A stretch of DNA of 64,000 bases from an uncultured Acidobacteriota bacterium (GTDB lineage Bacteria > Acidobacteriota > Thermoanaerobaculia > Multivoradales > UBA5704). The translations under genes were made by a program, and so were the position numbers. Below the pieces are notes generated by a model. The model had not been told where the DNA came from. It did no database searches and worked only from the letters and a program-made list of their open reading frames with translations. This document shows, one piece after another, positions 10,633 through 38,567 of the stretch. Location of the stretch: NCBI GenBank assembly GCA_963700145.1, contig OY969474.1:2784001-2848000 (forward strand). Reading direction: 5' to 3'. Position 1 is the first letter of the stretch. Each line of letters starts with the position of its first letter.

Positions 10633-10695
10633 GGTTTCCCTCCGCTGGTTGCAAAGGATCTTAGTCTCTAAGCCGCGCCACTTGGCGGAAGGTGC

Positions 10696-10728
10696 TTGAC
10701 GGGAGGTGTAATGTAGGCTACATTACAC
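10696..10728 (+). promoter_or_regulatory. Sigma70-type promoter overlapped by a palindromic TetR-type operator
   Basis: TTGACG-N17-TACATT; perfect inverted repeat GTGTAATGTAG-G-CTACATTACAC at 10706-10728. Confidence 0.8.
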
Positions 10729-10738
10729 GCATCCGCCG

Positions 10739-12612: not shown

Positions 12613-12627
12613 GCGAGGAGCGCGCGC

Positions 12628-17827: not shown

Positions 17828-17855
17828 GCGCGAAGGCCTTCGCGCCGGGCTCCAA

Positions 17856-18785: not shown

Positions 18786-18790
18786 CCCGG

Positions 18791-19591
18791 CTAGCCGGCG
18801 GGCGCGAAGAGGTCTAGCGGCACGCCGGTGCCGGAGCCGAAGTACTCGCGCGAGTTGGCGCCGGCGCAGGCGAAGCCGTTGATCAGGATGCGGCGCGGGG
18901 CGCCGCCGCGGTTCTCGGCGCTGCGGTGCACGACGTAGGGGCCGAAGAAGGCGGCGCTCCCGGCCTTGAGCAGCGCCGGCACGCCCTCGCGGTCCTGGTA
19001 GTCGCGGCGCACGTCGCCCGGGTCGAGGTGCCCGCGCCGGCCGCTGCCGGGGTAGAAGACCAGCGGCCCGTTGTCGAGCGTCGAGTCGTCGATCGCCACG
19101 ACCGCCTGCACGTAGCTGCCGCGGCCGTCGACGTCGCGCCACTCGGCCGTGCCGTAGCGGCGGTGCTCGCTGTCCTGGTGGGGCTCGAACTCGAGGCCGT
19201 CGTTCGGGTACTTGGCGTGGAGCTGGTTGAGCAGGTGGACGGCGCGGCCGGCGCCGAAGAGCTGGCCGACGACCGCGGTGAGCCGCGGGTCGCGCCCGCG
19301 GGCCAGGAGCTCGGGCTCGCAGCCCCCGGCCCACACGACCCGCAGCAGGCGCCGCGAGCCGTTTCCTCCGCTGAACACGAACTGGCTGCCGGCGTGCTCG
19401 ACCTTCTGTTCGCCGCCCTCGCCGCTTTCCTCCGCGCTCTCCTCGGCGAGCCCCCGCCCCACCGCCCGCACCCGCTCCGCCGCCTCCGCCATCGCCGCGA
19501 CCTCGTCGCGCGCGAACAGGCCTTCCAGGACGAGGTAGCCGTCGTCGTAAAACCGACCGATGTCGGCCCGGGAGAGCTGCGGGTACGTCAA
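18791..19591 (-). CDS. Phytanoyl-CoA dioxygenase (PhyH) family Fe/2OG dioxygenase
   Basis: Motifs PHQD, DNGPLVFYPGS, VVHRSAEN, RR. Confidence 0.92.
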   Translation of the reverse strand: MTYPQLSRADIGRFYDDGYLVLEGLFARDEVAAMAEAAERVRAVGRGLAEESAEESGEGGEQKVEHAGSQFVFSGGNGSRRLLRVVWAGGCEPELLARGRDPRLTAVVGQLFGAGRAVHLLNQLHAKYPNDGLEFEPHQDSEHRRYGTAEWRDVDGRGSYVQAVVAIDDSTLDNGPLVFYPGSGRRGHLDPGDVRRDYQDREGVPALLKAGSAAFFGPYVVHRSAENRGGAPRRILINGFACAGANSREYFGSGTGVPLDLFAPAG

Positions 19592-19653
19592 GCTGCGGAA
19601 TTCCTGGCGGCGAAGGATAGCAGATTCCGTATGCGGTACTGTAAGGAACGCCG

Positions 19654-20211
19654 ATGGACGACGCCCCGGAGACGCCCGCGCCGGCCCCGTCGGGGGCCCC
19701 TCTCGGCCGCCAGGCGCGGCTGGCCGTCATGGCGCTCGCCGTCTGCGCGCTCGGCGCCCTGTTCTGGCCGCGGGGGAGCGGGGACACGGCGCCGGCCGGG
19801 CTCCTCCTCGACGCCTCCGGGCGGTCGGCGACCCTGGGGGCGCACATGGCGCCGGTGTCGCTCGTCCACTTCTGGGCCACCTGGTGCCCGCCCTGCCTGA
19901 CCGAGATCCCGGCGATCCAGCGGCTCGCGGCTGAGCTCAGCCGCGAGCCGAGCTTCGGGCTGGTGCTGGTGGCGGTGGCCGACGACCGCGGCAAGGTGCG
20001 CAGCCTCATGGGCGAGGCGAGCAACGTCGTCCTCCACGACACCAACTGGGAGGTGGCCCGCCGCTACGGCACCAAGCAGCTCCCGGAGACCTATCTCGTG
20101 GTGGAAGGCAAAGTCGTCGAGAAGTGGGTCGGCGCCACCGACTGGGACGCCCCCGCCCAGCGCGCCAAGGTCCGCGCCCACCTCGCTGGCGCGGCGAAGC
20201 CGGCGGCCTAG
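19654..20211 (+). CDS. TlpA/ResA-like thiol-disulfide oxidoreductase
   Basis: FWATWCPPC and LPETY motifs; N-terminal TM. Confidence 0.92.
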
Positions 20212-20837
20212 GTTCCGCCCTCCCCGCCCCGCTCCGCTTCCTCTTCGTAGTCCGCAATCGACGCCTCGATGACGCGGTAGGCGTGGTCGCGGCCGTAGGT
20301 GCGGTCGACAGCGACCGCCGGCGTCGCGCCGGGGACGAGCTTGTAGGTCGAAAAGTAGTGGACCAGCCGGTCGAGGAACGGGCGCGGCACGTCGGCCAGG
20401 TCGGCCGTGGCCGCCCACACCGGGTCGTTCTCGAGCACCGCGACGATCTTGTCGTCGGCCTCGCCGCGCTCGACCATCTGCAGGCCGCCGATGACCCGCG
20501 CCGCGAGCAGCACCTCGGCGCGGGCGATCGGCCGCTCGGAGAGGACGCAGACGTCGAGCGGGTCGCCGTCGCCGCGCGCGGTGCCGGGGGAGAGCGCGCC
20601 GACCCGCGCGCCGCAGTAGGTGCGTGGCACGAAGCCGTAGAGGGTCGGCGGCAGCGACGAGGTCGCCTGCGGCCGGTCCACCTTGAGGTAGCCGGTCACC
20701 TTGTCCACCTCGTACTTGACGAGGTCGAAGGGCGTGATCTCGACGTAGGCGTAGACGACCCGCGGCGGGTCGGGCCCGGGCTCGAGGCCGTGCCAGGGGT
20801 GCGGCCGCAGGGAATGGAAGGGGCGCGGGAAGCTCAT
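20208..20837 (-). CDS. ppa: Family I inorganic pyrophosphatase
   Basis: Motifs HPWH, KYEVD, YGFVPRT, DGDPLD, DDKI. Confidence 0.95.
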
Positions 20838-23792: not shown

Positions 23793-24059
23793 CTACGGCT
23801 TCCGGTCCTTTCGCGATCTCGGATCGTGCCCGGAGCTGTCCTTGTCGCGGATCGTGCCGTCCTTGCGGTGAAAGACCGCCTCGACCTTGTCGCGTTGCGC
23901 ATGCCGCCGCGCCGCCTTCTCCGCCTCGACCTGCGTGCGGTGGTGCGACAGGGGCGTCGCCGTGCCCTCCCGCTTCACGTCCCACCCGGCCCCGCCCTTC
24001 GCCGGCACCGAGTGAATGTTCCGCTTCCCGCTACCCCGGCTTCCGCTGCTCTTGGCCAT
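23793..24059 (-). CDS. DUF2188 family small protein
   Basis: HSVP...GWDVKREG...TQ.EA...HRKDGTIRDKDSSGHDP. Confidence 0.85.
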   Translation of the reverse strand: MAKSSGSRGSGKRNIHSVPAKGGAGWDVKREGTATPLSHHRTQVEAEKAARRHAQRDKVEAVFHRKDGTIRDKDSSGHDPRSRKDRKP

Positions 24060-24179
24060 GCTGTCTTCCTCCTTTGTATGCTCGAGGGCCGGCTGACGTT
24101 CATCCGCGCCGGCACTCCTTCATGGGCTTGCCGAAAATGTGCCAGCCTTAACCGCAGTGTTTGCAGGAGTGTAGGAGCG

Positions 24180-24940
24180 AACCGAAGTGCCGCTCGTCGC
24201 TGGTGGCGCGCTCGATCAGGAGCAGGCCATGGACGGACGGCTCGCCGCCGGACGCGCTCTCGCCGCCGACGCGCTTGTAGTGCACGGTGAGACCCTACAG
24301 CAGCGCAAACGCCGCTCGCTTGACGAAGTCGTCGCGCTGGTCGCTCCACTGCGCGACCTTGGCCCAAGCATACGGCGTGCGGTCAAAGAGGTTGAAGCAC
24401 AGGGTGTCGCAGATGCTCCACTTGTCGAAGTCGCGGCACCAGCGGTCTATCTGCGCGGGCGCGACGCGCGCCGGCTCGTCGACGAACGAAGTCAAACATC
24501 CGAGGCTGTTACCAGCCGGTGTCCCACGGGGCGGCGGCGAGCTCGTGGCTGCGCCCGAAGCGCTTCGCCACATCTGAGAGTTGGCCATCGACAAGCTGGG
24601 CGAGACCGGCCAGGAGCGGCCGCCCTCGGGGGCGGCGGCGGGAGCGACAGCGGGGGCCGCGGGGCCGGGCGCGCTGCCCTCGACCGACGGCTCCGGGATC
24701 AGCGGCTTGCCCGCGCGCACACCGAAGACCTTGCTCGCAGTGATGCCGAACCGCGCCAGGTTGTCGCGATCCTTCCGAGTGCTCATCCGCTCGAGCGGAC
24801 AGCGCCGCCTGGACCTGCTCCTGGAGCGGCCGCGCTCTCTTGAGTGGCCCTGGTAGGCATGTTTTTGGCGCGCTCCCTGGTGCGCTCTTCGGCGCGGGTT
24901 CCCACGCGGACTTCGTCTTCCTCGTCGTCTTGGCAAGCAT
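24180..24940 (-). pseudogene. DNA alkylation repair (AlkD-like) pseudogene
   Basis: Fragments LARFGI...FGV, RSHELAAAPWDTGW and IDRWCRDFDKWSICDTLCFNLFDRTPYAW...FVKRAAFAL are split by an insertion, frameshifts and in-frame stops. Confidence 0.85.
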
Positions 24941-25087
24941 GCGGATGCTCCGTGGGCGCTACGCCGACGTCGCCAACACTAGGCCACTACACAGGTAAGG
25001 CGCACGCCCGTTGCCGATGAGCCTGATTGTGACAACATACGCTAAACAATAGAGACCCCTAACTAGGAGGCACTCGTCAGTACCTTC

Positions 25088-28000
25088 TTGCTTTTTCTTT
25101 GGCTCTCAGCGGACGCCGTTCTCGGACCGAAACCCCCTGTCGAGTCTTCTTGGGTGCTTGGGAGCGAGGGTCTCCACGCGAGCGAGATGTCCGGAGCCGA
25201 GCCTCGCTCGGTTCCCGATGAGGTAAGCGACCGCGATGACAAAGTCAGGTCACTCCTGGAGGCTGGGAAGTACCGGGACGCAATTGCTTTCGCCCGCGAA
25301 CTCGTCGCGCGGGAGAAAGCCTCCGCCGGCCCCTCTCTGGCTGGGCACCTTCACTGGCTCGGTTCCGCCCTCAACTCGTGCTCTCAGTACCGTGAAGCCC
25401 GACCGCTTCTCGAGCGAGCGGTGGAGATCAAACAGCAGATGCGGCCACGCGATGGCTTGGGCTTGGCCTCCAGCCTGATCGAGCTCGCGCGCGCCTTGGT
25501 CGGACTTGGAGATTTCCCTGCCGCAGCCATCCGCCTCGGCGCTGCCCTTTCCCTCTTGGAGAAGGAGGGAGGCAGCGAAACCAGGATTCTTGCCGATGCA
25601 CTGTCCGTCCGCGCTTCCCTCTTCCTTTCCCAGGCTCGGTACCGAGAGGCAAAGCCACTTCTTGAGCGTGCGCTCGCGATTCGTCGGCGGATCGGTCTGG
25701 AATCCGACGCGGGGCGTAGCCTCGCCCAACTCGCATCCCTTTTCGGCGAGCAGCGCGACCGAACAGGGGCACTGCCGCTGATCGAAGAATCGCTCGCCAT
25801 CCTCGAGCGGACCCTCGGGCCAGGGCATCCGGCGCTCGTCCCCCCGCTGACACTCCTCGCGTGGAGTCGAATCGAGAAGCGCGAGACCGCCCAGGCCCAG
25901 GCTCTCGTCAGCCGCCAGATCCAGATCGCCGAGGATGCCTGCGGCCCAAGCAACTCTCTTTCAGTTTCGGCGCTCCTCCAACGTGCATGGCTCCATCTGC
26001 TAGTCCACGATACCTCCGCGGCCCGCGCCGACGCCGACGAGGCCATTCGGATCCAGGAAGCCTCGATCGGCGCTGCCAGCCCGCGCCTGGCCGCATGGCT
26101 TCGCCTTCAGGGTGACGTTCTGGTGGAGGCGGGTGACATTAACGGGGCAGAGTTAGCGTTACGACGGTCGCTCGAGCTGGCTAGAGTTCCGGGAGGCGAG
26201 GTCCTCACCGCTGCGACCACAACCTCACTGGGCGCTCTGAGCTTGGCTCAGGGCAAACCGGAGGAGGCGAGAGAGCTGTTCGAGCGTTCGCTGGGCATCT
26301 ACGACGCCCAACTCGGGCCTGGCCACCCACTCTCCCTCGTTGACCTGCAGTTACTTATCGGCATCGCACTTTCTCGCGGAGAGGATGGCGGAAAAATTGC
26401 TCCGCTTCTCGAGCGCGCTATCCCCTTGGCGGAAAAGGTCTATGGCCCTGATCATCTCGGTGCCGCACAGATGACGCTGTTACTAGTACCCATCCTCGGC
26501 AGAAGGGGCGAGGTCTGGCTAGCGGAAATACAGGCAATAAAAGCGTTCCAAGTCCTTGAAAGGAAGTTGGGGCCGGCGAGCGCCGATTTGGCCCAACCGC
26601 TCATTGTGCTTGGCCAGGCCGAAACGGCGAAGGGCGACTTCGGAGCGGCCCGCTCCCACTTCGATCGTGCCGTCGCCCTTTTTCGCTCCCGGTTCGGAGA
26701 CTTGCACCCAGCGACCGCCGCCGCGCGCCTTCAGCTGGCGCAGCTGTTCGAGTCCCAGGGGGATCTCGCTGGCGCGGGAGTTCTCTACAAAGCCGCCGCG
26801 ACTGTGCTCGCAACGCACCTTGGGCCCGACCATCCTGCCGCGGTCCAGGCGACCGCTGGATCGGCTTCGGTCGCGCTACGCTCGGGCAAAGTTGAAGAGG
26901 CGGCACAGCTTTATGATCTCGCCATCGCATCGCTCGAGCGGGCACTCGGTGCCGAAGCCGCCAGCCTTGCGCCGCTCCTCGCCACTCGGGCGGCGATTTA
27001 CCAGCTGCAAGGCCAGCTCACACGGGCCGAGGCGACATTCGTTCGGGCCACCGAGAGCGTCGGTCGAGACTCGTCTGAGGTGCTCTTGCGCGCGCAAATC
27101 GATGCCGGCCGAGCGTCGGTGCTCGGCGAGATGGCAAGGCCATCAGAAGCGCGCAGGCTTTTTGAGCAGGCGGTCGATGTCCTCGACGCGGGCGGAGATA
27201 GCTTGGCCCTAGCCTCGGTTCTGCAACAGCAGGGATCATTCCTGTTGGCTCAAGCGTCTTATGGGGACGCCGCGGGAGCCTTCGAGCGCGCCTACCTCAT
27301 TATCCAGAAGCTTGGGGGCGCCGACCATGCCCTCGGTGGTCACAGCTTGGTGGGACGCGGGGTGGTGGAGGAAGCAAGAGGCGACTTTGCGGCCGCGCGG
27401 ACCTCCTATGACGCGGCGTTGTCCCTCTGGCAGACGCATTGGGGGGCCGAGCACCCGTACGTCGCCCAAGCCCTGATGCATCTGGGCCAGCTGGCGATGC
27501 ACTTAGGTGATTTCGAGGCGGCAGAGGAGACGTTTCGGCGATCTTTGGCAATCCAGAAGACGATCGCGGGCGCGCCGCGTCCTGCCGTCGGACAAGCCCT
27601 ACTTGCCCTCGGCAACGTGCGTTCCAAGCGCGGTGACTATCCTGCCGCCCGGGCCTTCATCGAGGAATCACTCACCATAGCCCAGGAGGCCTTTGGTCCG
27701 ACTGACCCCAGACTCGCCGCGCCCTTTAACAGCCTTGGTGTATTGCTCCGCGAACAGGGCCGGTTCAGAGAATCGGCTGCCGCTCTCGACCACGCCCGCC
27801 AACTGCTTGAGGACGCGAGGCAGACCGATTCGCTCCATTACGCAGCCGTGCTCGAGAATCTGGGCGGGTGTTTCCTCAGTATGGGGCGATTCCGCGAGGC
27901 GCGGCCCTTGCTGGAGCGGGCGTTGGCCAAACGGCGCGAGCGAATGGGCCCCGAGCATCCCGACATAGCACGAAGCCTCGGAGCTCTCGCCTCACTCCTC

Positions 28001-30691
28001 GCTTCGGAAGGTGACTACGACGGCAGCCGCCGTGCCTCCGAGACCGCGCTGGCGATCTTCGACAAAGCCCAAAAGATCTCTCCCGACGACGCGGCGAGGG
28101 TAAAGAGCGCTCTTGCCCCTGTGCTCACTCAGCAGGGCGAGTATGCGCGGGCTCGCCGGCTCGCGCAGGGGTCCTTGGAGACCCTTCGCAACCTGCTGGG
28201 ACCGGGTCATCCAGACGTCGGTGACGCTCTACGCAATCTCGGTGACATGCTTCAACAACAGGGAGAATGTCCGGCAGCCATCGACGCATATCGGTCGGGA
28301 TTAGCCGTGACTGAGCAGGCTCTGGGGGCCGATCATCCACAAGCCGGGCTCATCCTCCGCGGCCTGGGCGTGGCTCTCCGCTGCAAGGGGGATCTGGTCG
28401 CGGCGCGCGAAACCCTGGAGCGAGCGAGGAGAATTCTCGGAGCCTCTTTGGGCGAAGAAGCCCCGGTTGTGGGCGAAATCTTGTTCCACCTGGGGCTGCT
28501 TCGTACCAGTCAGGGAGACCTGGAGCCTGGCGAGGCGCTAATCAGCCGCGCGGCAGGAATCTTCGAATCCAGTTTTGGTCCAGATCATCCCGGCCTGATC
28601 GCCATCCTCTCCAACCTCGCCATTCAGCGATCTCTGCTCCAGCGGCGAGAGGAGTCAGCCGCACTCCTAGACAAGGCTATGAAGATCCAGTCTACTCGGG
28701 AGCGTGAGAGTAGTGCATCTTCCGTGGGTTTGCTGTGCCATATCGCGTCGGCACAGGCTGCCACCTCGCATGCGGATTCGGCCAAGGCCACCTACGAACG
28801 AGCCCTTGAAGGCCTAGGAGAGCTTGGTCGGGCTTCCGGGTTGGAAGCGATGGGACTGCTCATGGGCCACGGTGCAGCAAGCCTGGTGGCGGGAGATCTC
28901 AAAGCAGCCAGGACCTCCTACGTGTCAGCTCAGGGTATGGCCGCGAAGGCCTTGGGCGCCGACGACCCTAGATTGGGGCTGATCGTTGGCAATCTTGGGC
29001 TCGTGGATTGGCGAGAGGGAAAGCGGGCCTCGGCGCGCCGGAGGCTTCTCCGCGCGGCCGATATCCTCCGCCACGGCACGGAAACTCTGCTGCCGTCGTT
29101 GTCTTTTGCCGAGCAACGCGCCTTCCTGGGCACTCTCGTGGGGTATCCGGTTCCCTATCTTCTCTCCTTTCTTAGGGGAGGGACGGACCTGAAAGGCGCG
29201 GCTGCACGAGTACTTCCCTTGAAGGGGTTGCTTGTCGAGTCTCTGCGGAGAGAGGCGGTCCTCACTAAGACGGCAGCGCTCGAGCCGCACTTGGCGCCCC
29301 GCGTGGAGCGGCTGCGCGAACTGCGCATGGAGATCAGCGGGTTGCATACGGCCCAATCGGCGAACCAAGGTGAGTTCAGGCTACGGCTGCGCGAGCTAAG
29401 CAGGGAGAAGGAGCAGATTGAGCGGGACCTCGTAAGGATGGATTTGGGAACGGGTCTCGAAGACCCCATGAAAGGGATCGACGATCGTTTCGTCCAGCGC
29501 CTGCTGGCGCCGGACGAAGCGATCGTCGATGTATACCGGTACCAGGACCTTTCCGGCAACAAGCCAGTTGATCAGTACGGAGCTGTTGTGATCACGCCGC
29601 GGCGTGATCCGGTCCTTGTCAGCCTGGGTCGCGTCACAGAGGTTCACATGACCCTTCAGTACTGGTGGAACCTCGTGCTCTACGCGAGCGCAGGTGTCGA
29701 TACTACCGACGCCGCCTGGCAGGCTCTCGCGGACAGGCTTTGGGCGCCCATCGTATCCAAGCTGGCGCCGGCGACGCGACGGATTTGGATAAGCCCGGAT
29801 GACGAACTCTCCCGAATTCCCTGGCAGCTGTTTCCCCCGACTGGAAGCGGCCACCCTTCGCGCCTGGTAACCCAGATCGACTCGGTACGCGAGCTGGTGC
29901 GCCTGAGAAACCACGGCCAACCCGCCGCTAGTCCCGTCAGGCCGGTCGCTCTGATCGCAGGCGGTATCGATTTCGACGTTGGTGCTGGGGATTCGGACCG
30001 ACGTTTCGCGCCGCTTCCAGCCAGCGCGGCTGAGGCCGAGGCCATCCGTGACCTGGGACTGCGCGAGGGGTTCGATGTGAGGCTCCTCGCGGGAGCGGCG
30101 GCGAGCAAGAAAGAGATCCTCGACCGTCTGCCACAGGCCGACTACGTGCATGTTGCGACCCATGGATTCTTCGCAAGGAGTGCGCCAGCCGCGGACTCCG
30201 CCGATCTCTCCGCAGCATTTGGCGGGCTGCGGGAACCTTGGATGGAGTTGCTGGGCCAGGCACGCAACCCCCTCGCAGAGTCTGGGATCGCAGTGGCCGG
30301 GGCAAATCGGCGGCCGTCGGCAACCGGGGAGTCCACGGGCGTCCTTACAGCAGAGGAACTGGTCGGTCTCGACCTAGGCCGCGTCCGTGTCCTGACGCTC
30401 TCCGGGTGCGAGACGGGACGCGGCGAAGAGGCGACAGGGCAGGGCGTTCTTGGCCTGCGCGCGGCCCTCCTCGCCGCGGGCGCGAGAAGCTTGATCATGT
30501 CAGTCTGGAAGGTACCGGACGAGGCGACCCAGGAACTGATGCGGCGGTTCTATGCCAATCTTTGGGAGCGGAAGCTACCACGGCTCGCAGCTCTCCTCGC
30601 AGCCCAGAAGGACCTGCGGGAGGATCCTTCCGGAAAATTCACTGCTCCGTTGAACTGGGCGGGTTGGATCCTCGTCGGCGAGGGCTGGTAA
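25088..30691 (+). CDS. Giant TPR-repeat protein with C-terminal CHAT (caspase-like) protease domain
   Basis: Many kinesin-light-chain-like TPRs (LGPxHP); catalytic motifs HVATHG and LSGCETG; SVWKVPD, WAGWILVG. Start uncertain. Confidence 0.93.
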   Translation: MLFLWLSADAVLGPKPPVESSWVLGSEGLHASEMSGAEPRSVPDEVSDRDDKVRSLLEAGKYRDAIAFARELVAREKASAGPSLAGHLHWLGSALNSCSQYREARPLLERAVEIKQQMRPRDGLGLASSLIELARALVGLGDFPAAAIRLGAALSLLEKEGGSETRILADALSVRASLFLSQARYREAKPLLERALAIRRRIGLESDAGRSLAQLASLFGEQRDRTGALPLIEESLAILERTLGPGHPALVPPLTLLAWSRIEKRETAQAQALVSRQIQIAEDACGPSNSLSVSALLQRAWLHLLVHDTSAARADADEAIRIQEASIGAASPRLAAWLRLQGDVLVEAGDINGAELALRRSLELARVPGGEVLTAATTTSLGALSLAQGKPEEARELFERSLGIYDAQLGPGHPLSLVDLQLLIGIALSRGEDGGKIAPLLERAIPLAEKVYGPDHLGAAQMTLLLVPILGRRGEVWLAEIQAIKAFQVLERKLGPASADLAQPLIVLGQAETAKGDFGAARSHFDRAVALFRSRFGDLHPATAAARLQLAQLFESQGDLAGAGVLYKAAATVLATHLGPDHPAAVQATAGSASVALRSGKVEEAAQLYDLAIASLERALGAEAASLAPLLATRAAIYQLQGQLTRAEATFVRATESVGRDSSEVLLRAQIDAGRASVLGEMARPSEARRLFEQAVDVLDAGGDSLALASVLQQQGSFLLAQASYGDAAGAFERAYLIIQKLGGADHALGGHSLVGRGVVEEARGDFAAARTSYDAALSLWQTHWGAEHPYVAQALMHLGQLAMHLGDFEAAEETFRRSLAIQKTIAGAPRPAVGQALLALGNVRSKRGDYPAARAFIEESLTIAQEAFGPTDPRLAAPFNSLGVLLREQGRFRESAAALDHARQLLEDARQTDSLHYAAVLENLGGCFLSMGRFREARPLLERALAKRRERMGPEHPDIARSLGALASLLASEGDYDGSRRASETALAIFDKAQKISPDDAARVKSALAPVLTQQGEYARARRLAQGSLETLRNLLGPGHPDVGDALRNLGDMLQQQGECPAAIDAYRSGLAVTEQALGADHPQAGLILRGLGVALRCKGDLVAARETLERARRILGASLGEEAPVVGEILFHLGLLRTSQGDLEPGEALISRAAGIFESSFGPDHPGLIAILSNLAIQRSLLQRREESAALLDKAMKIQSTRERESSASSVGLLCHIASAQAATSHADSAKATYERALEGLGELGRASGLEAMGLLMGHGAASLVAGDLKAARTSYVSAQGMAAKALGADDPRLGLIVGNLGLVDWREGKRASARRRLLRAADILRHGTETLLPSLSFAEQRAFLGTLVGYPVPYLLSFLRGGTDLKGAAARVLPLKGLLVESLRREAVLTKTAALEPHLAPRVERLRELRMEISGLHTAQSANQGEFRLRLRELSREKEQIERDLVRMDLGTGLEDPMKGIDDRFVQRLLAPDEAIVDVYRYQDLSGNKPVDQYGAVVITPRRDPVLVSLGRVTEVHMTLQYWWNLVLYASAGVDTTDAAWQALADRLWAPIVSKLAPATRRIWISPDDELSRIPWQLFPPTGSGHPSRLVTQIDSVRELVRLRNHGQPAASPVRPVALIAGGIDFDVGAGDSDRRFAPLPASAAEAEAIRDLGLREGFDVRLLAGAAASKKEILDRLPQADYVHVATHGFFARSAPAADSADLSAAFGGLREPWMELLGQARNPLAESGIAVAGANRRPSATGESTGVLTAEELVGLDLGRVRVLTLSGCETGRGEEATGQGVLGLRAALLAAGARSLIMSVWKVPDEATQELMRRFYANLWERKLPRLAALLAAQKDLREDPSGKFTAPLNWAGWILVGEGW

Positions 30692-30701
30692 GAGTTCGAC
30701 C

Positions 30702-33700
30702 TCATTTAGCAAGGGCAGACCTAAACTCGATATCTTCGCCGTGACATACCTGCGCCTCCGGCTCCTGATCGACCTGGGAAACGGAGGTTACGCCGGGCGC
30801 CATCCTTTTTTTCTGGGCCCGTTTCGCCCTTACCGGGGACCGCGGAAAAAGCTCGGCATGCAGCGGCGAGGGCCTGTCCAGTTCCCGCTCACTGGTCCCG
30901 TTGCCCAATCCTTCGTCCCGAGCCCGGTCAAGACCGGTCAGCATGAAGGCTGCCCAGAAAAAGGGCAAGCGCCATTCCGGCCGTGCCAGGATCTCGAGCT
31001 GCGCGGCCCGCAGTGCCGTTGCGGCCGGCTCTCCCTGCCGCAGCCGGCGATGCAGTGCCACCATCAACGCCGCCGTGGCTCGGTCATCGATGCGCCAGAG
31101 TGTCGAGATCGCAGCCGGAGCGCCCGCAGCGAGCAATGCGCGGCTCAGGCTGACGATATCGTCCCCCTCGCTACGCTCTCCCAGGGCGGTGTCGCAGGCG
31201 GACAACACCACCACGCGCGTGGTGGAGAGATCAAGATTGAAAATCTCATGGACCTCAAGCCGACCATCCTGCCCACCACCCGGGGCGAGATCAACGCGGC
31301 TGAACAGCGGATGCACAGGATCATAGACACCATGAGCCGCCAGATGGAGGACGCCGGCCCGCCCCGCTTCTCTCCGGACCAGAGCCTCGCTGGCAGCAAT
31401 GCCGCGATAGACCGGTGCACCGTAGAGGGCCGCGACCGCCTCCGCCTCCTCGCCAGCCTCGGGCAAGCTCCCGTCGGGGTTGCCCAGCACCAGGGCTCCC
31501 CCCGCCGCCGGCTTTCCCTGCGCGACGAAGCGCAAGACGCTGGCGCTGGGCGCTAACGAAAGAGTGTGATCCTCGATCAGGAAACGGCCGGACGGCTTGC
31601 GGAGAGCGGCGAAAGGAAGGTAATGCAACGGCCCATGCGGGACGACAACGAGGTTCTCGTGGCGCAGGAACGGCTCGAGGGGACCCAAGAGAGCCGCATA
31701 CAGCTCCAGTACACCCAGGTCGTCTTCCCTGCGACCGGCTAGTTGGTCCCGCAGCGTCTTCACCTTGTTCTGAAGATCCCCGGCGGCGACCGGCAGCTCC
31801 ACGAGATCCATGGTTTCCCGGTCGATCACCCAAGCCAGCGTTCGGCGATCGAGAACGAAGAATTCGATCAGCGTAGTCTTGGCGGGCAGGAGTCGCTGGA
31901 CCTCCTCCCGGCCTGCGACTTGGACGCTGATCAGGGACGCATATTCCGGGCTCGCCCGCTTGAGCCGGTCTAGCACCCCCTCGTACGCCCGGCTCGCCTC
32001 CTCCTCCGCTCGAGCGTCCTCTACGGCTTCGTGTTCGGCGTTTGTGCCGCTCGGGCGCACCCGGCGACGTGCGCGAGCGTCTTCAAGCCTCTGCCGCGCC
32101 GTCTGCCACTCAGCGATCAGGTTTGGCGGAACTCCTTGGAGATCGATCCGGCGATTGCCGATCTGGTTTAGGAAGGCTCGGGCACGCGCCCGTTCTGCGA
32201 ACTCGAATGCCCGGTCGGGCTGGTTGAGATCAACGGCCAGCTCGATGGCACGTGTGTAGAGGGGAGCCTGCCGGCCGGCAAACGAGGAAACGAGCTGATC
32301 CAGCCGTATCTCTCCGAGGATCTCCTCAGTTGCATCGATGGCCTGGCGGTAGGCGTCGAGAGCTTCCTGTTTCTTGCCCTGCCGCTGGTAGATCGCGGCG
32401 ATGCCGCTCAGAGCCAGAGGACGGGACTGATCAACTTCCTTTGCAGACGCGAGCCGGTAGGCTTCGAGCGCTCTTTCGTCTCTTCCCGCGGCAGAGAATA
32501 AATCGCCCCACCAGAGATCCTGCCATCCGTCCCCCTGGATCCCGCAGGACTTGCCGAGTTGCGGAGGCGCTGGCAGCCTCAGCGCACGCGCTGCTCCGAG
32601 CTCGCGCACCAAGTCGTATCTAGGGCCGGAAGCCGAGCTCTCTTCGTCGGTAGGGAACCAGAGCTGTATGAGCCTTAGATCGGTCGCCTCCACGATATCC
32701 CACGCTTGCCGGTACTCTTCTGCTGCCCTTTCCGCGCTGCCGTCGAGCGCATAGATACGGCCCAGAAAGTCGTAGATCTCGACCTCACAAGGCAGGGCCG
32801 CGATCGCGTCGGCGTTCACCTGCCCGATTCTCTTCACGGCCTCTTGGGTTTTCCGGAACTGCCCCCGAAGGAAACCCTCCATCCAAGGCCACTGGATCAA
32901 GGGAGGAGAGCCGGCGAGCGATGCGGCTCTGAGACCGAAGCGTTCGGCCTCCTCCTTTTGCAGATCCTCCCAAACCATTTGCCGAAGGCGGGCGAGGTCA
33001 GGGTCAGTGGGCTCAGGGACCACAGTTACGGCAGGAGGTTGGTCCATTGCGGTGAGGGCCTGCTCACCGACGCGGCCGCTCTTGAAGTCCTCCACCAACG
33101 GGCGTATGGCTTCCAGATAGTGCTCGTAGGCGTGAGGGTCCGCGCGCTGGCGCAACGCGCGGAGGCCTGGAAGCGACGCCTCAAGGTGCTGGGCAGCCTC
33201 CCGGTAGCGCCCGAGGATATAGCTTAGACGGCCAAGGCGCAGGCTCTCTGCCACCTCTTGTAAGAACGGGAGGTTTGGGGGCCGCACCTCCCGCGCTCGT
33301 ATGAGATTAGCGAGAGCCTCTTCATAGAGCCCGAGCGGTTCCTGCGCCTTGGAGAGGAGGTCGAGGGCACCTGCCTGACCCCGAGGATCGCGCAGGCGAT
33401 GAAAGATCTCCGCCGAGCGCGCCAGTGGATCGAGGCCTTTGCGTGGCAGCCGGCGGTTCAGCTTGAGCTCGCCTAGAGCGAAAAGCGCCGCCGCCTCCGT
33501 TCGCTGATCGCCGAGGTCCAGGCTGATCTCCAGGGCTCGGCGGATGTGTGCCTCACCGGTGACAGGATCAATCAATAGTAGCCGCCCCAGGCGGGTACGG
33601 ACAGCGGCCTCGAGGCTACGGTCGCCGGAGCTGCGGGTCCGACGCAAGGCTGCGTTCAGCTCGTCCTGGAGGCCAGGATTCCAGGTCGTTCCATCGAAAG

Positions 33701-33842
33701 TGGCGTCAACTCGCTCGAGCAGCTCCTGGATGACATCCGCGGCCTTCCTCGCTGTGGCAAGCGGGGATTGACCCCGATCTGGAATAGCGGCAGAGAAGAC
33801 CAAGAAAACCATCCAGCACCAAGCCTTTCTCGGGATGCCCAC
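30702..33842 (-). CDS. TPR-CHAT caspase-like protease with signal-like N-terminus
   Basis: AERARAR, LHYLPFAAL, HLAAHG, LSACDT, FFWAAF; RBS AGGAGG before GTG 33842. Confidence 0.93.
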   Translation of the reverse strand: MGIPRKAWCWMVFLVFSAAIPDRGQSPLATARKAADVIQELLERVDATFDGTTWNPGLQDELNAALRRTRSSGDRSLEAAVRTRLGRLLLIDPVTGEAHIRRALEISLDLGDQRTEAAALFALGELKLNRRLPRKGLDPLARSAEIFHRLRDPRGQAGALDLLSKAQEPLGLYEEALANLIRAREVRPPNLPFLQEVAESLRLGRLSYILGRYREAAQHLEASLPGLRALRQRADPHAYEHYLEAIRPLVEDFKSGRVGEQALTAMDQPPAVTVVPEPTDPDLARLRQMVWEDLQKEEAERFGLRAASLAGSPPLIQWPWMEGFLRGQFRKTQEAVKRIGQVNADAIAALPCEVEIYDFLGRIYALDGSAERAAEEYRQAWDIVEATDLRLIQLWFPTDEESSASGPRYDLVRELGAARALRLPAPPQLGKSCGIQGDGWQDLWWGDLFSAAGRDERALEAYRLASAKEVDQSRPLALSGIAAIYQRQGKKQEALDAYRQAIDATEEILGEIRLDQLVSSFAGRQAPLYTRAIELAVDLNQPDRAFEFAERARARAFLNQIGNRRIDLQGVPPNLIAEWQTARQRLEDARARRRVRPSGTNAEHEAVEDARAEEEASRAYEGVLDRLKRASPEYASLISVQVAGREEVQRLLPAKTTLIEFFVLDRRTLAWVIDRETMDLVELPVAAGDLQNKVKTLRDQLAGRREDDLGVLELYAALLGPLEPFLRHENLVVVPHGPLHYLPFAALRKPSGRFLIEDHTLSLAPSASVLRFVAQGKPAAGGALVLGNPDGSLPEAGEEAEAVAALYGAPVYRGIAASEALVRREAGRAGVLHLAAHGVYDPVHPLFSRVDLAPGGGQDGRLEVHEIFNLDLSTTRVVVLSACDTALGERSEGDDIVSLSRALLAAGAPAAISTLWRIDDRATAALMVALHRRLRQGEPAATALRAAQLEILARPEWRLPFFWAAFMLTGLDRARDEGLGNGTSERELDRPSPLHAELFPRSPVRAKRAQKKRMAPGVTSVSQVDQEPEAQVCHGEDIEFRSALAK

Positions 33843-34019
33843 GGATTGACCCCCTCCTCCTGAAGCCTGAAGAGCCAACAGCTCTCACCGTGAAATGCGT
33901 GCCGTGCCTAGGACACAGCGGCTGTGCCGGTGTTTAGAAGTCGAGGCGGGCATTGGTAACTGCCGAAGGATAGATTACCGGCAGCTGGGAGCCGGCACCC
34001 GCGAAGGCTCAATTCGTTT

Positions 34020-35198
34020 TCACTTTAGAACGCGGCCCGCTGCTTTTTCTGCCGCCTGTCGTGCCGCGTCCTCCTCCTCCCCGAGCCTAAGCTGAGAGTA
34101 CAGCTCACGTGCCTCGCGGAAAGATGCTGCGGCATCCCAGTACGTGCCGCGGGCGTAAGCGATCCGGCCCAGTCCGAAGGCTGCCGCCGCGCGAATGGAA
34201 GGCGCGCCATCTGTATGCGCCTCTCGGTAGTACGGCTCCGCAAGGAAGTGCAGGCCCATGGCGAAATCGAGGTCGGCTAGGGTTATGCGCAATTCTGCGG
34301 TGGGAGCGGCAGCTAGAGCTCGCCGATACAGATCGACGGCGTCCGCGTACAGGCCTTTCTCGGCGAGCAGGCCCGCCCGAGCCGCGTCGAGGGCGGCACC
34401 TTCGAGGCCGATGCTCTCGAGATCGCGGAGCTGACGCTCCAGCGCGACGGCTTCCGCAATCTCTTGCGTTCGCACCTGCACCGGATCATTCGAGTGCCAG
34501 GGCTCTGCAACTCCACTCCGTGCCGCGATCCTGAGAAAAAAGATCTCTCCCGGCGGCAGATCCGGACGGTCCTCCGGCCATCGCAGCGAGCAGATGACCA
34601 TCCCCTTCGGCTCCTCAGTGCAGGTGACCTCTCCGGCCTGGAGGCGAACATCATGACCGCTGGCGCCGCGCCCGTTCCATCGCACTTCGTAGTCGGTCGC
34701 TGAAGTCACGCGGCTCCAGGAGGCCGTTGGACGTGGCGATCGCAGGACCGTATTGCGCGGTCTCAGCACGACCGGAGCGAGCGGGTCATCGCCATCGTCG
34801 CTCCGCATCTCCCGCTCGAGCACCAGGAGGCCCTCGACCACTTTGAAGCGCCCTCCTTGCGGTGCGATCAGGGAGTACTCGCCGGGCGTTAGCTCTTTGC
34901 CCGCGGCGCAGGCCGGCTCCGTCAGCGACCAGGAAGCAGGACCGCGGACATGAACGAAGTGGCGGTCGGAGCACACAATGCCGGCGGAGCCATCTTTGGG
35001 GACATAGATACTGACCCCCTCCTGGATCACCTGCCAGGGACTGGCCAGGGGAAGATCGCCGGCCCCAGGGCCAACGGCCTCGACAGCTCCCTGAATTTGG
35101 GTGATAACGCCGTGTAATGCCCTGGGCGGCGGTTGCTCCGCGCCGGCTGCCGCCAACCCGACCAAGAGGAACAACGCCGCCATGGATCTCAACGACAT
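34020..35198 (-). CDS. Secreted protein with beta-rich N-terminus (DUF928-like region) and C-terminal TPRs
   Basis: RBS GAGGAG, ATG 35198, signal peptide; PVVLRPRNTVLRSPRPTASW; TPR tail. The DUF928 resemblance is tentative. Confidence 0.8.
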   Translation of the reverse strand: MSLRSMAALFLLVGLAAAGAEQPPPRALHGVITQIQGAVEAVGPGAGDLPLASPWQVIQEGVSIYVPKDGSAGIVCSDRHFVHVRGPASWSLTEPACAAGKELTPGEYSLIAPQGGRFKVVEGLLVLEREMRSDDGDDPLAPVVLRPRNTVLRSPRPTASWSRVTSATDYEVRWNGRGASGHDVRLQAGEVTCTEEPKGMVICSLRWPEDRPDLPPGEIFFLRIAARSGVAEPWHSNDPVQVRTQEIAEAVALERQLRDLESIGLEGAALDAARAGLLAEKGLYADAVDLYRRALAAAPTAELRITLADLDFAMGLHFLAEPYYREAHTDGAPSIRAAAAFGLGRIAYARGTYWDAAASFREARELYSQLRLGEEEDAARQAAEKAAGRVLK

Positions 35199-35214
35199 CA
35201 GTCTGGGCTCCTCA

Positions 35215-36447
35215 TTAGGAAGAACAATGATGCTTCGCGGCGACCGCCTCCACGTGTGGCGCCCAAGGAGTGACCTTTGCCCCATCCAAGCGGCGGAACT
35301 CGTAAACCTGCCGGCAGGCTGACGGCACATTGCCAAGCTGATCGTAAGCTTGAATCAGCAGCCAGAACGTCTCGATCCGGCCAAGATCTCCAAGAACATA
35401 ACGGTTGCGCGCCTCCTCTAGGTGCGGGATTGCCGCCTGCGGTTGCCCAGCCCGCAGCTCCAATTCTCCATAGAGCCGATGCAACGCAGGCCGATCTGGG
35501 TCCAGGCGCAAGCCAGTAGAAAGGGCTGCCCTCGCCCTACTCAGCATGTTGAGGGCGAGAGCCGCATGCGCCAACTCGCCATAGGCGTCGACCCGCTCGG
35601 GTTCACGCACGCTAGCCTGCAGGAGAAACGGATACGCATCGGCGAACCTTTCCCTGCCGTTGAGGTAATGTCCAAGGTTGAACAGGTGCTCTGCCGAGTC
35701 CGGCCGCTGTTTCACCGCCGCTCGGTAGTGATCCTCGGCAGCCCGGACATCCCCAAGCCTCTCCTCGGTCGCTGCGAGATTAGAAAGAATCTCCGCCTTT
35801 CCGGGCGCGAGCTTCAGGGCGTCGCGAAATTGTTTCCGGGCCTCGGACCATTGTCCATGCTCGAAGAACGCCACGCCTTGTGTGACCAGCCGCTCCTTCC
35901 ACCAGTTGCAGCCCGCTATCCCCATAATTGTAGCCAGCAGGAGGCTCAGCAAGGCTGCGGTCGGCCAACCGGCCCAGTGTTCGCTGCGCTTGATGAACGG
36001 CCCCGGCAGCAACTCGCCACCTTCCCCGGGGCCGGGCACTTTGCCTCGTATGCCAGCAAGGAGCCTTCGGAAGGCCTCTTCATCGTCGATGCCGGCGCGG
36101 AAGTCAACCCAGGCCAGGAGGCGGAGGAAACGGGGAACCTCACCTTTAGTGGTCCAACCGGGCAGCAGCACTGGGATCACCCGGATCGATTGGTCGCGGA
36201 CCCGTTCGGCTAGCGCCGAACGCATCTCTTGATTCTGCCAGGGCCCGAGCTCCTTGCCGAGAAAGACAGCGCAGGTGCGACTCTCGTCGAGTGCTTCCTC
36301 CAGCGCCTCCTCCCAAGGGTCTCCGGGAATAAGGTGCCATTTGTCGAGGAACGGCTCAAGTTTTTCCTCCCGAAGCTTGCGAGCAATGTGCTCAATGGCT
36401 GGCTTATCGGCGTTGGCATGGCTGAGAAAAACGTCGTAGCGGGGCAT
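35215..36447 (-). CDS. TIR domain - transmembrane helix - TPR protein
   Basis: YDVFLSH, FLDKW, GPWQNQEM (putative catalytic Glu), IPVLLPG, WVDFR; TM AALLSLLLATIMGIAGC; about six TPRs. Confidence 0.93.
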   Translation of the reverse strand: MPRYDVFLSHANADKPAIEHIARKLREEKLEPFLDKWHLIPGDPWEEALEEALDESRTCAVFLGKELGPWQNQEMRSALAERVRDQSIRVIPVLLPGWTTKGEVPRFLRLLAWVDFRAGIDDEEAFRRLLAGIRGKVPGPGEGGELLPGPFIKRSEHWAGWPTAALLSLLLATIMGIAGCNWWKERLVTQGVAFFEHGQWSEARKQFRDALKLAPGKAEILSNLAATEERLGDVRAAEDHYRAAVKQRPDSAEHLFNLGHYLNGRERFADAYPFLLQASVREPERVDAYGELAHAALALNMLSRARAALSTGLRLDPDRPALHRLYGELELRAGQPQAAIPHLEEARNRYVLGDLGRIETFWLLIQAYDQLGNVPSACRQVYEFRRLDGAKVTPWAPHVEAVAAKHHCSS

Positions 36448-36712
36448 TCACAGTCCCCTTCCTGGGCTGTTGCAATCTTAGAGAATTACCTTGCCGTTTT
36501 GTACCCGACTCTCTCCTGCCAGTCCAGGGAAAGGCTTGTCGTGCGGCTAGCTCGACATGGTACGCACGCCGCGGTCGTGGTCTTACCTCTTGGCGGCTCC
36601 TCGAACGGCATGAGCTTTGTCGAACATCCGCTCCCGGAAGGAACGAGGGGGCCGCCGATGGGAGGAACGGAAAGAGGGATTGGCGGCAAGGAGTGGGCAG
36701 GTTGCCCACGGA

Positions 36713-36922
36713 TCAGCCGGCAGTGACGAGCTGCGTATCGACGAAGTGGTCCTCCAGCTCGGGATCGCCGTCTTCGAGAAGCATGGCAATGACTTCCTGG
36801 AGGTTCTGCTGGAGCTCGTCGAGGCTTTCGGCTTGGGAGTGCGCGCCGGCGAAGCCGGGCACATACCCGACGTAGAAGCCGGTGTCGGGGCACTTCTCGA
36901 CCACCGCTGTATACGTTCGCAT
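36713..36922 (-). CDS. hicB: Short HicB-family antitoxin
   Basis: MRTYTAVVEKCPDTGFYVGYVPGFAGAHSQAESLDELQQNLQEVIAMLLE. Confidence 0.9.
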   Translation of the reverse strand: MRTYTAVVEKCPDTGFYVGYVPGFAGAHSQAESLDELQQNLQEVIAMLLEDGDPELEDHFVDTQLVTAG

Positions 36923-36960: not shown

Positions 36961-37467
36961 TTAGACCACCACCCCGTTGAAGTGCACCGTGTTCCCGTTG
37001 AGGGTCACCGCGGCGCCTTGCCCGTTGTCGATGACGACCGTGGTGTCGATCAGGGAAATGCGCGCGCCGGCCGGCGTTTGCAAAGTGATGCCGCCCGCCG
37101 GACCCGGAACGTCGGAGATCACTAAAGCGTGGCCGCCTGGCGTCACGAGCGCGACCTGGCCGCTCCCCGGCGGCCCGGCCTGGACGACGGCGGGGAGCTC
37201 GGATGTCGCGCCCCACCAGCAGCCGCTCCAGATCGGGTAGTCGGGATCGCCCTGCTCGAACTCGATCCAGACGCCGGCGCCGGTTGGGGGAAGCGCGACG
37301 ATGCCGGCGCCGGTGCCGGCGTAGGGGACGGACGGCATCGCCCAGGTGGTGGGCGCGGCCCCCGCCACGTCCGGCACGACGGCCTGCAGCCGCGCCAGCC
37401 GCAGCGGATCGAGGGTGTTGACGACGGTCCCGCGGTACTTGCCAAAGTAGGGCGGCTCTGCGCTCAT
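36961..37467 (-). CDS. Baseplate assembly protein V / Gp5-OB spike protein (eCIS-type)
   Basis: YFGKYRGTVV..DP...R..VPDV, WAMP, GAGVWIEFEQGDPDYPIWSGCWW; ATG 37467. Confidence 0.88.
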   Translation of the reverse strand: MSAEPPYFGKYRGTVVNTLDPLRLARLQAVVPDVAGAAPTTWAMPSVPYAGTGAGIVALPPTGAGVWIEFEQGDPDYPIWSGCWWGATSELPAVVQAGPPGSGQVALVTPGGHALVISDVPGPAGGITLQTPAGARISLIDTTVVIDNGQGAAVTLNGNTVHFNGVVV

Positions 37468-38567
37468 GGCTTCCCCCCGCCCGCCGCGCCGAGGCCGGCG
37501 CGCACGAGCTCGAGCTCCTGGTGATGGCTGCGCGCCGTCAGGGTGTCGCGCACGCGGCTGACGGCGTAAAGGCCGTCGAAGGGATCGGCGGCGCCGCGGA
37601 CCTCGACGATCTGGCCGGGGCGCAGCCGGCGCTGCCCCTGCACGATCTTGAGCGTGCCCAGCCCCGTCGTCGCCTCCGCCGAGCGGGCGGCCTCGGCGAG
37701 CAGCGCGGCGGCCGCCTGCAAGGCCGTGAGCTTCGCCGCCCCGGGCAGGCGTCGCTGCCGGTGGGCCGGCGGCACCACCGCCCCGAGCGGCGGCGCGAGG
37801 GCCGCGATGTCCGGCACGGGGATCGGGATCGCGACCTTCGTCGCGGGGTCGAGGATCACGGCCTGTGGCGCCACGCGTCCCATGGCGTCGAAGCGCAGCT
37901 GGAGCGTCTCGACGTTGCTGCGCCGCCCGAAGCGGACGAGGAGCGCCGGCTGCGCGCGGTCGCCGCGCGGCTCGGGCCCCCAATGCGCGACCGAGGCGCC
38001 GGGCGCCGGCCCCGGATCGAGCGTGAACCGGTAGCCGACGCCCTGGGCGAGCGCCTGCAGGTAGGCGTAGTCCGTGCCGTGCTGGAGGATGGGCGCGGAC
38101 GGCTCGGGCACGTTTACGAGCGGCGGCGGCACGACCGCGGCCGTCACGCCGAAGACCGAGTAGCCGGCGAGGATCACCGCGACGCGCGCCGCGACGGTCA
38201 TGCCGGGGAACGGGCGTCCGCTGCCGTCGCGGAGGTCCATCAAGAGCGTCAGGTCCTCGCCGCCGACGACCAGCTCGCCGTCCTCGGCGCCGGCCGCCAC
38301 CGCGTGGGTGACCGCGACGCCGTCCATCGCCACCACCTGCTCGCCGCACTCTTCGGTCAGCAGGACGACGCGCACTAGGTCGCCGGACTCGGGCAGGAAG
38401 CGGGCCGGCAGCATCGAGCCGCGATCGAGGCGGAAGGTCAGCCGGAAGGAGCCGCGCTCGCCGAGCGCCGCGACGATCTCGACCCTGCCGAGCGCCGCCG
38501 TCACGTCGGCCGGCACCGGCGCCGGCGCGCCGACGCCCGCCAGCAGCGAGAGCTTGCGCACGCTCAT
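37464..38567 (-). CDS. Probable baseplate hub (gp27/late control D-like, eCIS-type)
   Basis: GEDLTLLMD, QHGTDYAYLQALAQGVGY, LRPGQIVEVRG...DGLYAVSRV; overlaps the spike gene start. Confidence 0.7.
   Translation of the reverse strand: MSVRKLSLLAGVGAPAPVPADVTAALGRVEIVAALGERGSFRLTFRLDRGSMLPARFLPESGDLVRVVLLTEECGEQVVAMDGVAVTHAVAAGAEDGELVVGGEDLTLLMDLRDGSGRPFPGMTVAARVAVILAGYSVFGVTAAVVPPPLVNVPEPSAPILQHGTDYAYLQALAQGVGYRFTLDPGPAPGASVAHWGPEPRGDRAQPALLVRFGRRSNVETLQLRFDAMGRVAPQAVILDPATKVAIPIPVPDIAALAPPLGAVVPPAHRQRRLPGAAKLTALQAAAALLAEAARSAEATTGLGTLKIVQGQRRLRPGQIVEVRGAADPFDGLYAVSRVRDTLTARSHHQELELVRAGLGAAGGGKP

Follow-up and report, generated by a model that had tools for sequence, protein, structure and literature searches.

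Toll is a single-pass receptor with a solenoid LRR ectodomain and a cytoplasmic TIR domain, and it works with Spaetzle, a cystine-knot ligand, and with serine proteases. In the RseA/RseB/DegS system, too, one protein crosses the membrane once and has its output domain in the cytoplasm, while its partner, encoded directly downstream, and a protease are periplasmic. In the DdvA/DdvS system of Myxococcus xanthus, DdvA is an anti-sigma factor that crosses the membrane once, carries a TPR-CHAT region in the periplasm, and regulates a CBASS-CRISPR defense island; its proposed trigger is a periplasmic protein (PMC11506125). The EACC1/EACC2 systems are described as caspase-superfamily proteins fused to transmembrane (TM) helices and extracellular sensors such as PBP and CHASE2 (PMC7159879, PMC8195603). 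MtxA of Magnetospirillum is a periplasmic protein whose deletion gave no phenotype and for which its authors propose a role as a periplasmic sensor or mediator (PMC4439547). In this study, we analyzed a 64,000-nucleotide stretch of contig OY969474.1 (hereafter the window) from an uncultured Acidobacteriota bacterium, which carries four genes, designated A to D, and we focus on D, which encodes a TIR-TM-TPR protein, and on C, which encodes its predicted secreted partner.

A sequence-only reading of this DNA had proposed that a TIR-TM-TPR receptor, a secreted TPR protein, and two CHAT proteases may form a Toll-like signaling or defense module, with a putative relay running from extracellular protease to ligand to membrane receptor. 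Translation of the open reading frames (ORFs) confirmed that all four lie at the coordinates and contain the domains assigned to them there (Pfam E values of 1e-27 to 1e-67), and that D, C, and B are co-oriented on the minus strand and converge on A, on the plus strand, with the stop codons of A and B 10 nt apart (Table 1). No additional copies of A to D were found elsewhere in the 64-kb window. On balance, we lean toward reading D and C as a horizontally acquired, trans-envelope sensor-effector pair, in which an N-terminal head on D would act as a suicide enzyme activated by induced proximity.

Table 1. Features of the window discussed in this study
Feature	Coordinates	Strand	Basis or remark
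Low-GC island carrying A to D	24001..36700 (limits approximate)	.	GC content and GC content at third codon positions (GC3)
Gene A, giant TPR-CHAT protein, 1867 aa	25088..30691	+	Pfam; module membership uncertain
Gene B, TPR-CHAT protease, predicted to be exported, 1046 aa from GTG 33842 (ORF open to 33878)	30702..33842	-	
Gene C, predicted secreted partner, 392 aa	34020..35198	-	Signal peptide, beta domain, Ig-like domain, 8-helix TPR
Gene D, putative TIR-TM-TPR receptor/effector, 410 aa	35215..36447	-	Pfam TIR_2 and TPR
TIR head of D, residues 1-136, predicted cytoplasmic	36040..36447	-	Alignment with known TIRs
Catalytic-type Glu74 codon of D	36226-36228	-	
Putative swap junction and Pro/Gly-rich cytoplasmic tether of D, residues 137-155	35983..36039	-	Homology limits
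Single TM helix of D, residues 162-180	35908..35964	-	Kyte-Doolittle
Predicted periplasmic TPR sensor domain of D, residues 184-410	35218..35898	-	Pfam; Cys pair C378/C408

Domain architecture of gene D

In Pfam searches, D matched TIR_2 at residues 6-130 (94.4 bits against a cut-off of 28, E = 9e-27) and TPR at residues 187-400. PdTIR, AbTir, and BtpA/TcpB carry the same motif at the positions aligned with W70-x3-E74 of D. The Glu residue of this motif is the catalytic position of enzyme-type TIRs; E74, which had been noted as a retained catalytic-position residue, is kept in 87 of the 88 aligned members of the TIR clade of D (D included), and W70 is kept in all 88. Only one segment of D, residues 162-180, reached a Kyte-Doolittle value of at least 1.6, and the hydrophobic TM segment is kept in 8/8 rows of the D-family alignment (A3), in which the ectodomain Cys pair C378/C408 is also invariant. 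The TPR begins approximately 4 residues past the TM helix, and a flexible tether of approximately 25 aa lies on the cytoplasmic side.

BLAST comparisons divided D into two parts of different origin. Residues 1-136/139 share 78-79% identity with the TIR of TIR-NB-ARC proteins, and residues 156-410 share 75-80% identity with CHAT-TM-TPR proteins. TIR-type homology stops at residues 136-139 (up to approximately 154-156 for the matches P0135 and P0213), and TM-TPR-type homology starts at residues 156-158. These limits indicate that D is a clean chimera, with its predicted junction at residues 137-155, in the Pro/Gly-rich tether preceding the TM helix. In the search with full-length D, 31 proteins matched the TM-TPR half only (54-65% of the query, 45-80% identity), several of which sit on same-size contigs as C relatives (for instance 14224, 3227, and 12332). 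The other matches listed covered only the TIR (approximately 33-40% of the query, up to 79% identity) and had differing architectures, including NB-ARC, WD40, FGE-sulfatase, and CarboxypepD_reg. P0132, the one apparently almost full-length match (77% of the length), was rejected as such: it is a TIR-NB-ARC protein, and its alignment past approximately residue 150 was spurious.

The TIR of D (residues 1-140; 36028-36447) also recurs at 60-79% identity across more than 10 architectures among the matches listed, further ones being ankyrin, pentapeptide, SIR2-like, and CHAT; the named matches are mostly from Acidobacteriota. This type of TIR seems to be an unusually conserved, cassette-like head that is shuffled often.

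The D-C pair in related loci and its interchangeable heads

Scanning GTDB species genomes with the alignment of C yielded seven loci (L001-L007), all in metagenome-assembled genomes of Acidobacteriota/Thermoanaerobaculia. In every one of them, C is immediately preceded on its own strand by a D-like gene, and genes for caspase-fold proteases with signal-peptide (SP)-like N-termini flank the pair. A B-like TPR-CHAT gene adjoins the pair in L002, L005, L006, and L007 (4/7; 43-49% identity to the CHAT region of B), with the gene order D-C-B, as in the window, in L006 and L007, and SP-CARDB/DUF11-Peptidase_C14 genes are found at the pair in L001-L004. By contrast, no A-like gene was found within 10 kb of the D-C pair in any of the seven loci. 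The four-gene module of the sequence-only reading thus recurs in other genomes as a D-C pair with adjacent caspase-fold proteases, but without A.

The related loci also contain additional genes. Extra C copies without their own D-like gene are present a few kb from the D-C pair in L003 (9917-11179, split into two ORFs) and L006 (7234-8475). In L006, a divergent Ser/Thr protein kinase gene (14676-16700, +; Pkinase, E = 3e-50) adjoins the D-like gene, and in L007, three CHAT-domain genes (1173, 752, and 799 aa; 10669-20287) lie downstream of the PNP-TM-TPR/C pair.

The head of D is where the family varies. A CHAT head is present in 29 of the 31 TM-TPR-type relatives of D, the remaining two being fragments of 246 and 260 aa. 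Pfam assigned the layout CHAT-TM-TPR to the D-like proteins of L001-L006, in which the His/Cys dyad is intact, and PNP_UDP_1-TM-TPR to that of L007. Among these loci and the window, the N-terminal CHAT head is missing from L007 and from D of the window, which has a TIR instead. No further TIR-TM-TPR protein of the D family was detected among the D matches listed or among the single-stretch matches of a TM-TPR profile search; this search was dominated by giant multi-TPR proteins, and eight single-stretch matches were used. The TIR in D is therefore best described, on these comparisons, as a one-off replacement of the usual CHAT head. Together with the PNP_UDP_1 head of L007, it indicates that the head is a variable position and not the defining feature of the module. 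The real unit is, as far as conservation indicates, the D-C pair, whose putative sensor half (TM-TPR and C) stays the same across the family while the head changes.

All three kinds of head gave matches to domain models in PADLOC. The PNP head of L007 matched PDC-M60C (3e-25) and a CBASS PN-superfamily effector (2e-18), a D-like CHAT head matched SAVED_CHAT (3e-17), and the TIR of D matched PDC-S66 (2e-9) and SAVED_TIR (9e-7). That three unrelated enzymes, each of a suicide-effector kind, are found on a constant sensor speaks for an output of generic damage. Oligomerization is required for the activity of TIR NADases, of caspase-like proteases, and of PNP-family enzymes, and induced proximity would thus be the simplest activation common to the three classes of head.

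Gene C and the predicted topology of the pair

C follows D after a gap of 16 nt containing a GAGGAG ribosome-binding site (RBS), and its product carries the signal peptide MSLRSMAALFLLVGLAAAGA, followed by EQ. The family comprises 94 relatives, nearly all of approximately 390 aa, and the named ones belong to Thermoanaerobaculia. In an alignment of 35 members (A1), an N-terminal hydrophobic leader is present in 35/35, and the four Cys residues of C are invariant. Pfam gave only a C-terminal TPR match for C. In an AlphaFold2 model (pLDDT 87.4, pTM 0.84), the signal peptide is followed by a beta domain and an Ig-like domain and then by eight TPR helices, and its best PDB match in Foldseek was the C-terminal domain of MtxA (4z29_A, E = 3.5e-6, TMt 0.73); none of the 35 aligned members matched MtxA_C or MtxA_IG-like in Pfam at E ≤1.

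Embedding look-alikes of C (Atlas) fell into DUF928/TPR and MtxA clusters, with a DUF928 score of 0.94. A likeness to cyanobacterial CHAT/DUF928 loci had been suggested earlier, but the DUF928 identity of C was rejected because it rests on this embedding resemblance without Pfam support: DUF928 (PF06051) matched 0/35 members at E ≤1. In the literature searched, no paper named both DUF928 and CHAT.

Of the C-family proteins, 70 of 94 passed a crude signal-peptide test, compared with 1 of 28 among the D-like proteins and 79 of 119 among the matches of the search with A; B of the window also passed. Together with the leader in the aligned relatives, this agrees with the earlier proposal that C is secreted. 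D has one TM segment and no N-terminal signal peptide. The decisive information on the compartments came from P0472, a 954-aa protein found among the few clean matches of the TM-TPR profile search. It consists of CHAT (residues 40-297), TM, and TPR, followed by a 15-aa polar linker and a C-like module that starts at the mature N-terminus and lacks a signal peptide; its D part has 44% identity (E = 6e-60) and its C part 41% identity (E = 3e-79). This fusion places the TPR of D and C in one compartment, and because free C is secreted, the shared compartment would be the periplasm and the heads would be cytoplasmic. The single TM segment, the lack of a signal peptide in D, its invariant Cys pair, and the P0472 fusion thus bear out the topology proposed earlier, and D is, on these predictions, a single-pass inner-membrane protein with the TIR in the cytoplasm and the TPR outside. 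A complex prediction for the TPR of D (residues 184-410) and mature C (residues 22-392) gave a score of 0.00, which counts neither for nor against binding.

Proposed activation mechanism and alternatives

In the mechanism that we propose, the periplasmic assembly of the D TPR and C would report an envelope event. Candidate triggers are a foreign protein or the cleavage of C or of the D ectodomain by B, A, or C14 proteases. Such an event would alter the oligomeric state of D, and the head would then be activated by induced proximity. In the window, the output may be breakdown of NAD+ leading to growth arrest or death. This would amount to abortive defense or to a programmed death whose trigger lies outside the cytoplasm. 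The position of the tether in the cytoplasm and of the TPR approximately 4 residues past the TM helix favors lateral clustering over site-1 and intramembrane proteolysis, and on the same grounds we ranked regulated intramembrane proteolysis, with site-1 cleavage of the D ectodomain, lower.

Several points weigh against this mechanism. Signal peptides and topology were assigned by heuristics, namely, the crude signal-peptide test and hydropathy, and not by SignalP or DeepTMHMM. PADLOC, which covers Thoeris, CBASS, and other anti-phage systems, contains no model for C and gave no system-level match for A to D, only domain-level matches (ThsB reached E = 0.0086). The related loci are not obviously defense islands, since unannotated genes and a gene for a Ser/Thr kinase are among the neighbors. 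The version with a TIR occurs once, and selection for the TIR is unproven. A TIR can also make signaling nucleotides instead of depleting NAD+. Finally, the copy in the window shows possible signs of decay, namely, the truncated signal peptide of A, the odd tail of 73 aa on B, and the gene fragments at the edges of the island; these are described below.

Alternatively, the pair may have a nonlethal function in envelope signaling or development. In this reading, D-C would respond to a cue from the envelope or from another cell, and the head would be a regulatory enzyme, for example by HetF-like processing by CHAT or synthesis of signaling nucleotides by the TIR, while the exported TPR-CHAT and C14 proteases would remodel surface proteins. 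The highest scores of the D TPR were for TPR proteins of the envelope, including PilW, PrsT, GltE, Tgl, and BcsC, and none of these scores reached its cut-off; a D-like CHAT gave a sub-threshold HetF match, and, as mentioned above, a Ser/Thr kinase gene adjoins the pair in L006. The absence of a deletion phenotype and the suggested sensor or mediator role of MtxA, the fold relative of C, point in the same direction (PMC4439547). However, heads with substrates as unrelated as protein, NAD+, and nucleosides or nucleotides fit generic damage better than they fit a specific signal, all three heads match defense-effector models, and the family is rare (94 C-family clusters) and here lies in a compositionally foreign island. 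We therefore regard a nonlethal role as unlikely.

TPR-CHAT proteins A and B

B gave a CHAT match at residues 725-982 (228 bits against a cut-off of 24, E = 2e-67) and a weak TPR match in Pfam. The likelier start of B is GTG 33842, which is preceded by the RBS AGGAGGAGGGGG, and the N-terminus from this codon, MGIPRK-AWCWMVFLVFSAAI, is a signal peptide; B is thus predicted to be exported. A C-terminal tail of 73 aa past the CHAT domain (30702-30920, -) has no counterpart in four B-like relatives and extends to 10 nt from the stop codon of A. This tail may be a read-through following loss of the original stop codon.

A contains TPR_12 in 19 stretches (E = 1e-126) and a CHAT domain at residues 1544-1865 (198.5 bits against a cut-off of 24, E = 2e-58) in Pfam. 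Both CHAT domains keep the His/Cys dyad, as had been noted earlier, at H1692/C1774 in A and at H849/C895 in B (1058-aa numbering), and neither A nor B contains a hydrophobic segment above the threshold. Four full-length orthologs of A, of 1844-1867 aa, are collinear with it at 48-64% identity, and their N-termini resemble leaders. The start of this leader is cut off in the window by an in-frame TAG at 25064-25066, and A was negative in the crude signal-peptide test. Of the two proteases that the sequence-only reading took to be exported, B therefore keeps this assignment on its signal peptide, whereas export of A in the window is doubtful. The protein-collection entry for gene A, P0218, has 1162 aa and is an N-terminally shortened call. 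A 25-nt inverted repeat with 92% complementarity and a 4-nt spacer lies inside gene A at 29477-29530.

The membership of A in the module can be questioned. It may be that only D, C, and B belong together and that A is an independent TPR-CHAT protein of the exported type that merely shares the island, as suggested by its absence near the pair in the related loci and by its opposite strand. By contrast, the GC3 of A (0.70) is the same as that of D, C, and B (0.69-0.72), two of the four A orthologs sit on same-size contigs as a D-like or C-like match (145102, P0221/P0126; 375085, P0222/P0071), and the protease slot at D-C is filled by differing caspase-fold proteins across loci. We consider the independence of A a serious possibility, although we do not favor it.

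A Toll-like extracytoplasmic immune pathway in diderm bacteria can also be envisaged, in which periplasmic caspase-fold proteases (B, A, and C14) would process or guard C, and the TPR ectodomain of D would read the state of C so that the interchangeable head (TIR, CHAT, or PNP) kills or arrests the cell. If this were true, infection or attack would be sensed at the envelope before reaching the cytoplasm. The single-pass topology, with the TIR inside and the repeats outside, upholds this part of the Toll-like logic put forward earlier, but no LRR, cystine-knot ligand, or serine-protease cascade is present. Moreover, since the TIR is a one-off replacement of a CHAT head, the Toll-like look is secondary and convergent. 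Such a pathway seems to us improbable.

The low-GC island and its surroundings

The four genes lie in an island of approximately 24.0-36.7 kb with a GC content of 63-66%, compared with 69-78% in the remaining 2-kb windows. GC3 is 0.69-0.72 for A to D and above 0.90 in the flanking genes. The related Acidobacteriota loci have a GC content of 63-70% and a GC3 of 0.70-0.86 for D and C, which is near the values of the island and far from those of the window flanks, as would be expected if the island came from a lineage like that of the related loci. Judging from composition, the island is thus horizontally acquired. No tRNA and no convincing direct repeats were found at the island ends, no integrase was present among the flanking ORFs scanned, and there was no sigma gene in the island or its flanks.

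Both flanks are ordinary. The left flank has genes for PhyH, a redoxin, a pyrophosphatase, a phosphoribosyltransferase, and an alpha/beta hydrolase, and it ends in apparently broken ORFs at 24.0-25.0 kb, including a DNA_alkylation repair gene present only as a fragment (24295-24936, -; profile positions 88-142/213, E = 8e-6). The right flank carries an orphan HicB-like gene, a baseplate-V/gp5-type gene, a glyoxalase gene, a gene for a DtxR-type regulator, and copper and other metal genes. The HicB-like/UPF0150 antitoxin-type gene at the island edge encodes 69 aa (36716-36922, -; Pfam E = 2e-6 and 3e-5), and no HicA partner was noticed for it. The Phage_base_V/gp5-type OB-domain gene (36964-37467, -; E = 9e-20) is preceded upstream by an ORF of 367 aa (37464-38567, -) without a Pfam match and with a host-like GC3 of 0.96; the two could be left over from a phage tail or a contractile injection system.

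The copy in the window could be a decaying or accidental chimera that arose by recombination in the transferred island and does not function in its host, as the lack of a second TIR-TM-TPR protein of the family among the matches listed, the in-frame TAG in the leader of A, the tail of B without a counterpart in four relatives, the DNA_alkylation fragment at the left edge, and the orphan HicB-like and baseplate-V genes at the right would suggest. However, the four ORFs are intact over up to 1867 codons, the junction of D falls exactly in the cytoplasmic tether with the TM helix preserved, the catalytic residues of the TIR and of both CHAT domains are intact, and the RBSs and the D-C coupling are preserved. 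We consider a nonfunctional copy quite unlikely.

Comparison with known systems

Effector swapping is already known from conflict systems, and sensing by a periplasmic TPR-CHAT module is known as well. DdvA resembles D in being single-pass and in linking a periplasmic TPR/CHAT-type module to a cytoplasmic output (PMC11506125). The phage-defense role is a feature of DdvA itself, and it provides a precedent for a periplasmic TPR-CHAT sensing module in defense. DdvA has the TPR-CHAT within the receptor, a zinc anti-sigma domain, and a transcriptional output; here, the receptor D has only TPR outside, the TPR-CHAT protein B is separate and predicted to be exported, and the partner C is conserved. 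In addition, the cytoplasmic part of D-like proteins is an enzyme (TIR, CHAT, or PNP), which would give a direct output, and Pfam detected neither a DdvA-type zinc anti-sigma domain nor a TPR-CHAT on the same chain in D. An adjacent ECF sigma gene is likewise absent from the island and its flanks.

EACC1/EACC2 systems show a similar modular swapping of domains and are conflict systems (PMC7159879, PMC8195603). In EACC, however, the N-terminal caspase is constant, the C-terminus varies, and there is a small EACC TM protein, whereas the family described here keeps the C-terminal TM-TPR and C and varies the N-terminal head. None of A to D matched caspase_w_EACC1, and the C14 neighbor in L001 scored 101 bits, below the 140-bit cut-off. 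MtxA has the same layout as C (signal peptide, beta region, Ig-like domain, and TPR) and a similar fold; C differs in its longer TPR of eight helices and in the lack of a sequence-level Pfam match. MtxA is not known to have a function or partner (PMC4439547).

The plan of D-C-B is like that of RseA/RseB/DegS, with a single-pass protein, a periplasmic partner encoded directly downstream, and a periplasmic protease, but the proteins have no Pfam relation, and D has almost no periplasmic linker between TM and TPR and has a putative death enzyme in place of an anti-sigma domain. The near absence of this linker makes site-1 cleavage followed by intramembrane proteolysis less obvious for D. Like the Toll and Spaetzle pathway, the module combines a single-pass receptor, which has a solenoid outside and a TIR in the cytoplasm, with a secreted partner, and genes for proteases that would act outside the cytoplasm lie next to it; it differs in the TPR ectodomain, the MtxA-like partner, the caspase-fold proteases, and the bacterial enzyme-type TIR as a late replacement. 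The likeness to Toll is thus an analogy and not homology, and the bacterial architecture would be an independent reinvention.

PADLOC, NCBIfam, and Pfam contain no model for C or for the D-C pair, and no description of a TIR/CHAT-TM-TPR sensor was found in the literature searched, with subscription-only papers outside its scope. The D-C module looks like an undescribed envelope-surveillance suicide or defense module, and D illustrates the swapping of effector heads at a defined junction. Nearly all characterized bacterial TIR, CHAT, and PNP suicide effectors are triggered from within the cytoplasm, and DdvA is the main studied case of envelope sensing. Set beside these, a constant periplasmic sensor pair that appears to be wired directly to three alternative death enzymes is a tractable candidate for outside-in immune or death signaling.

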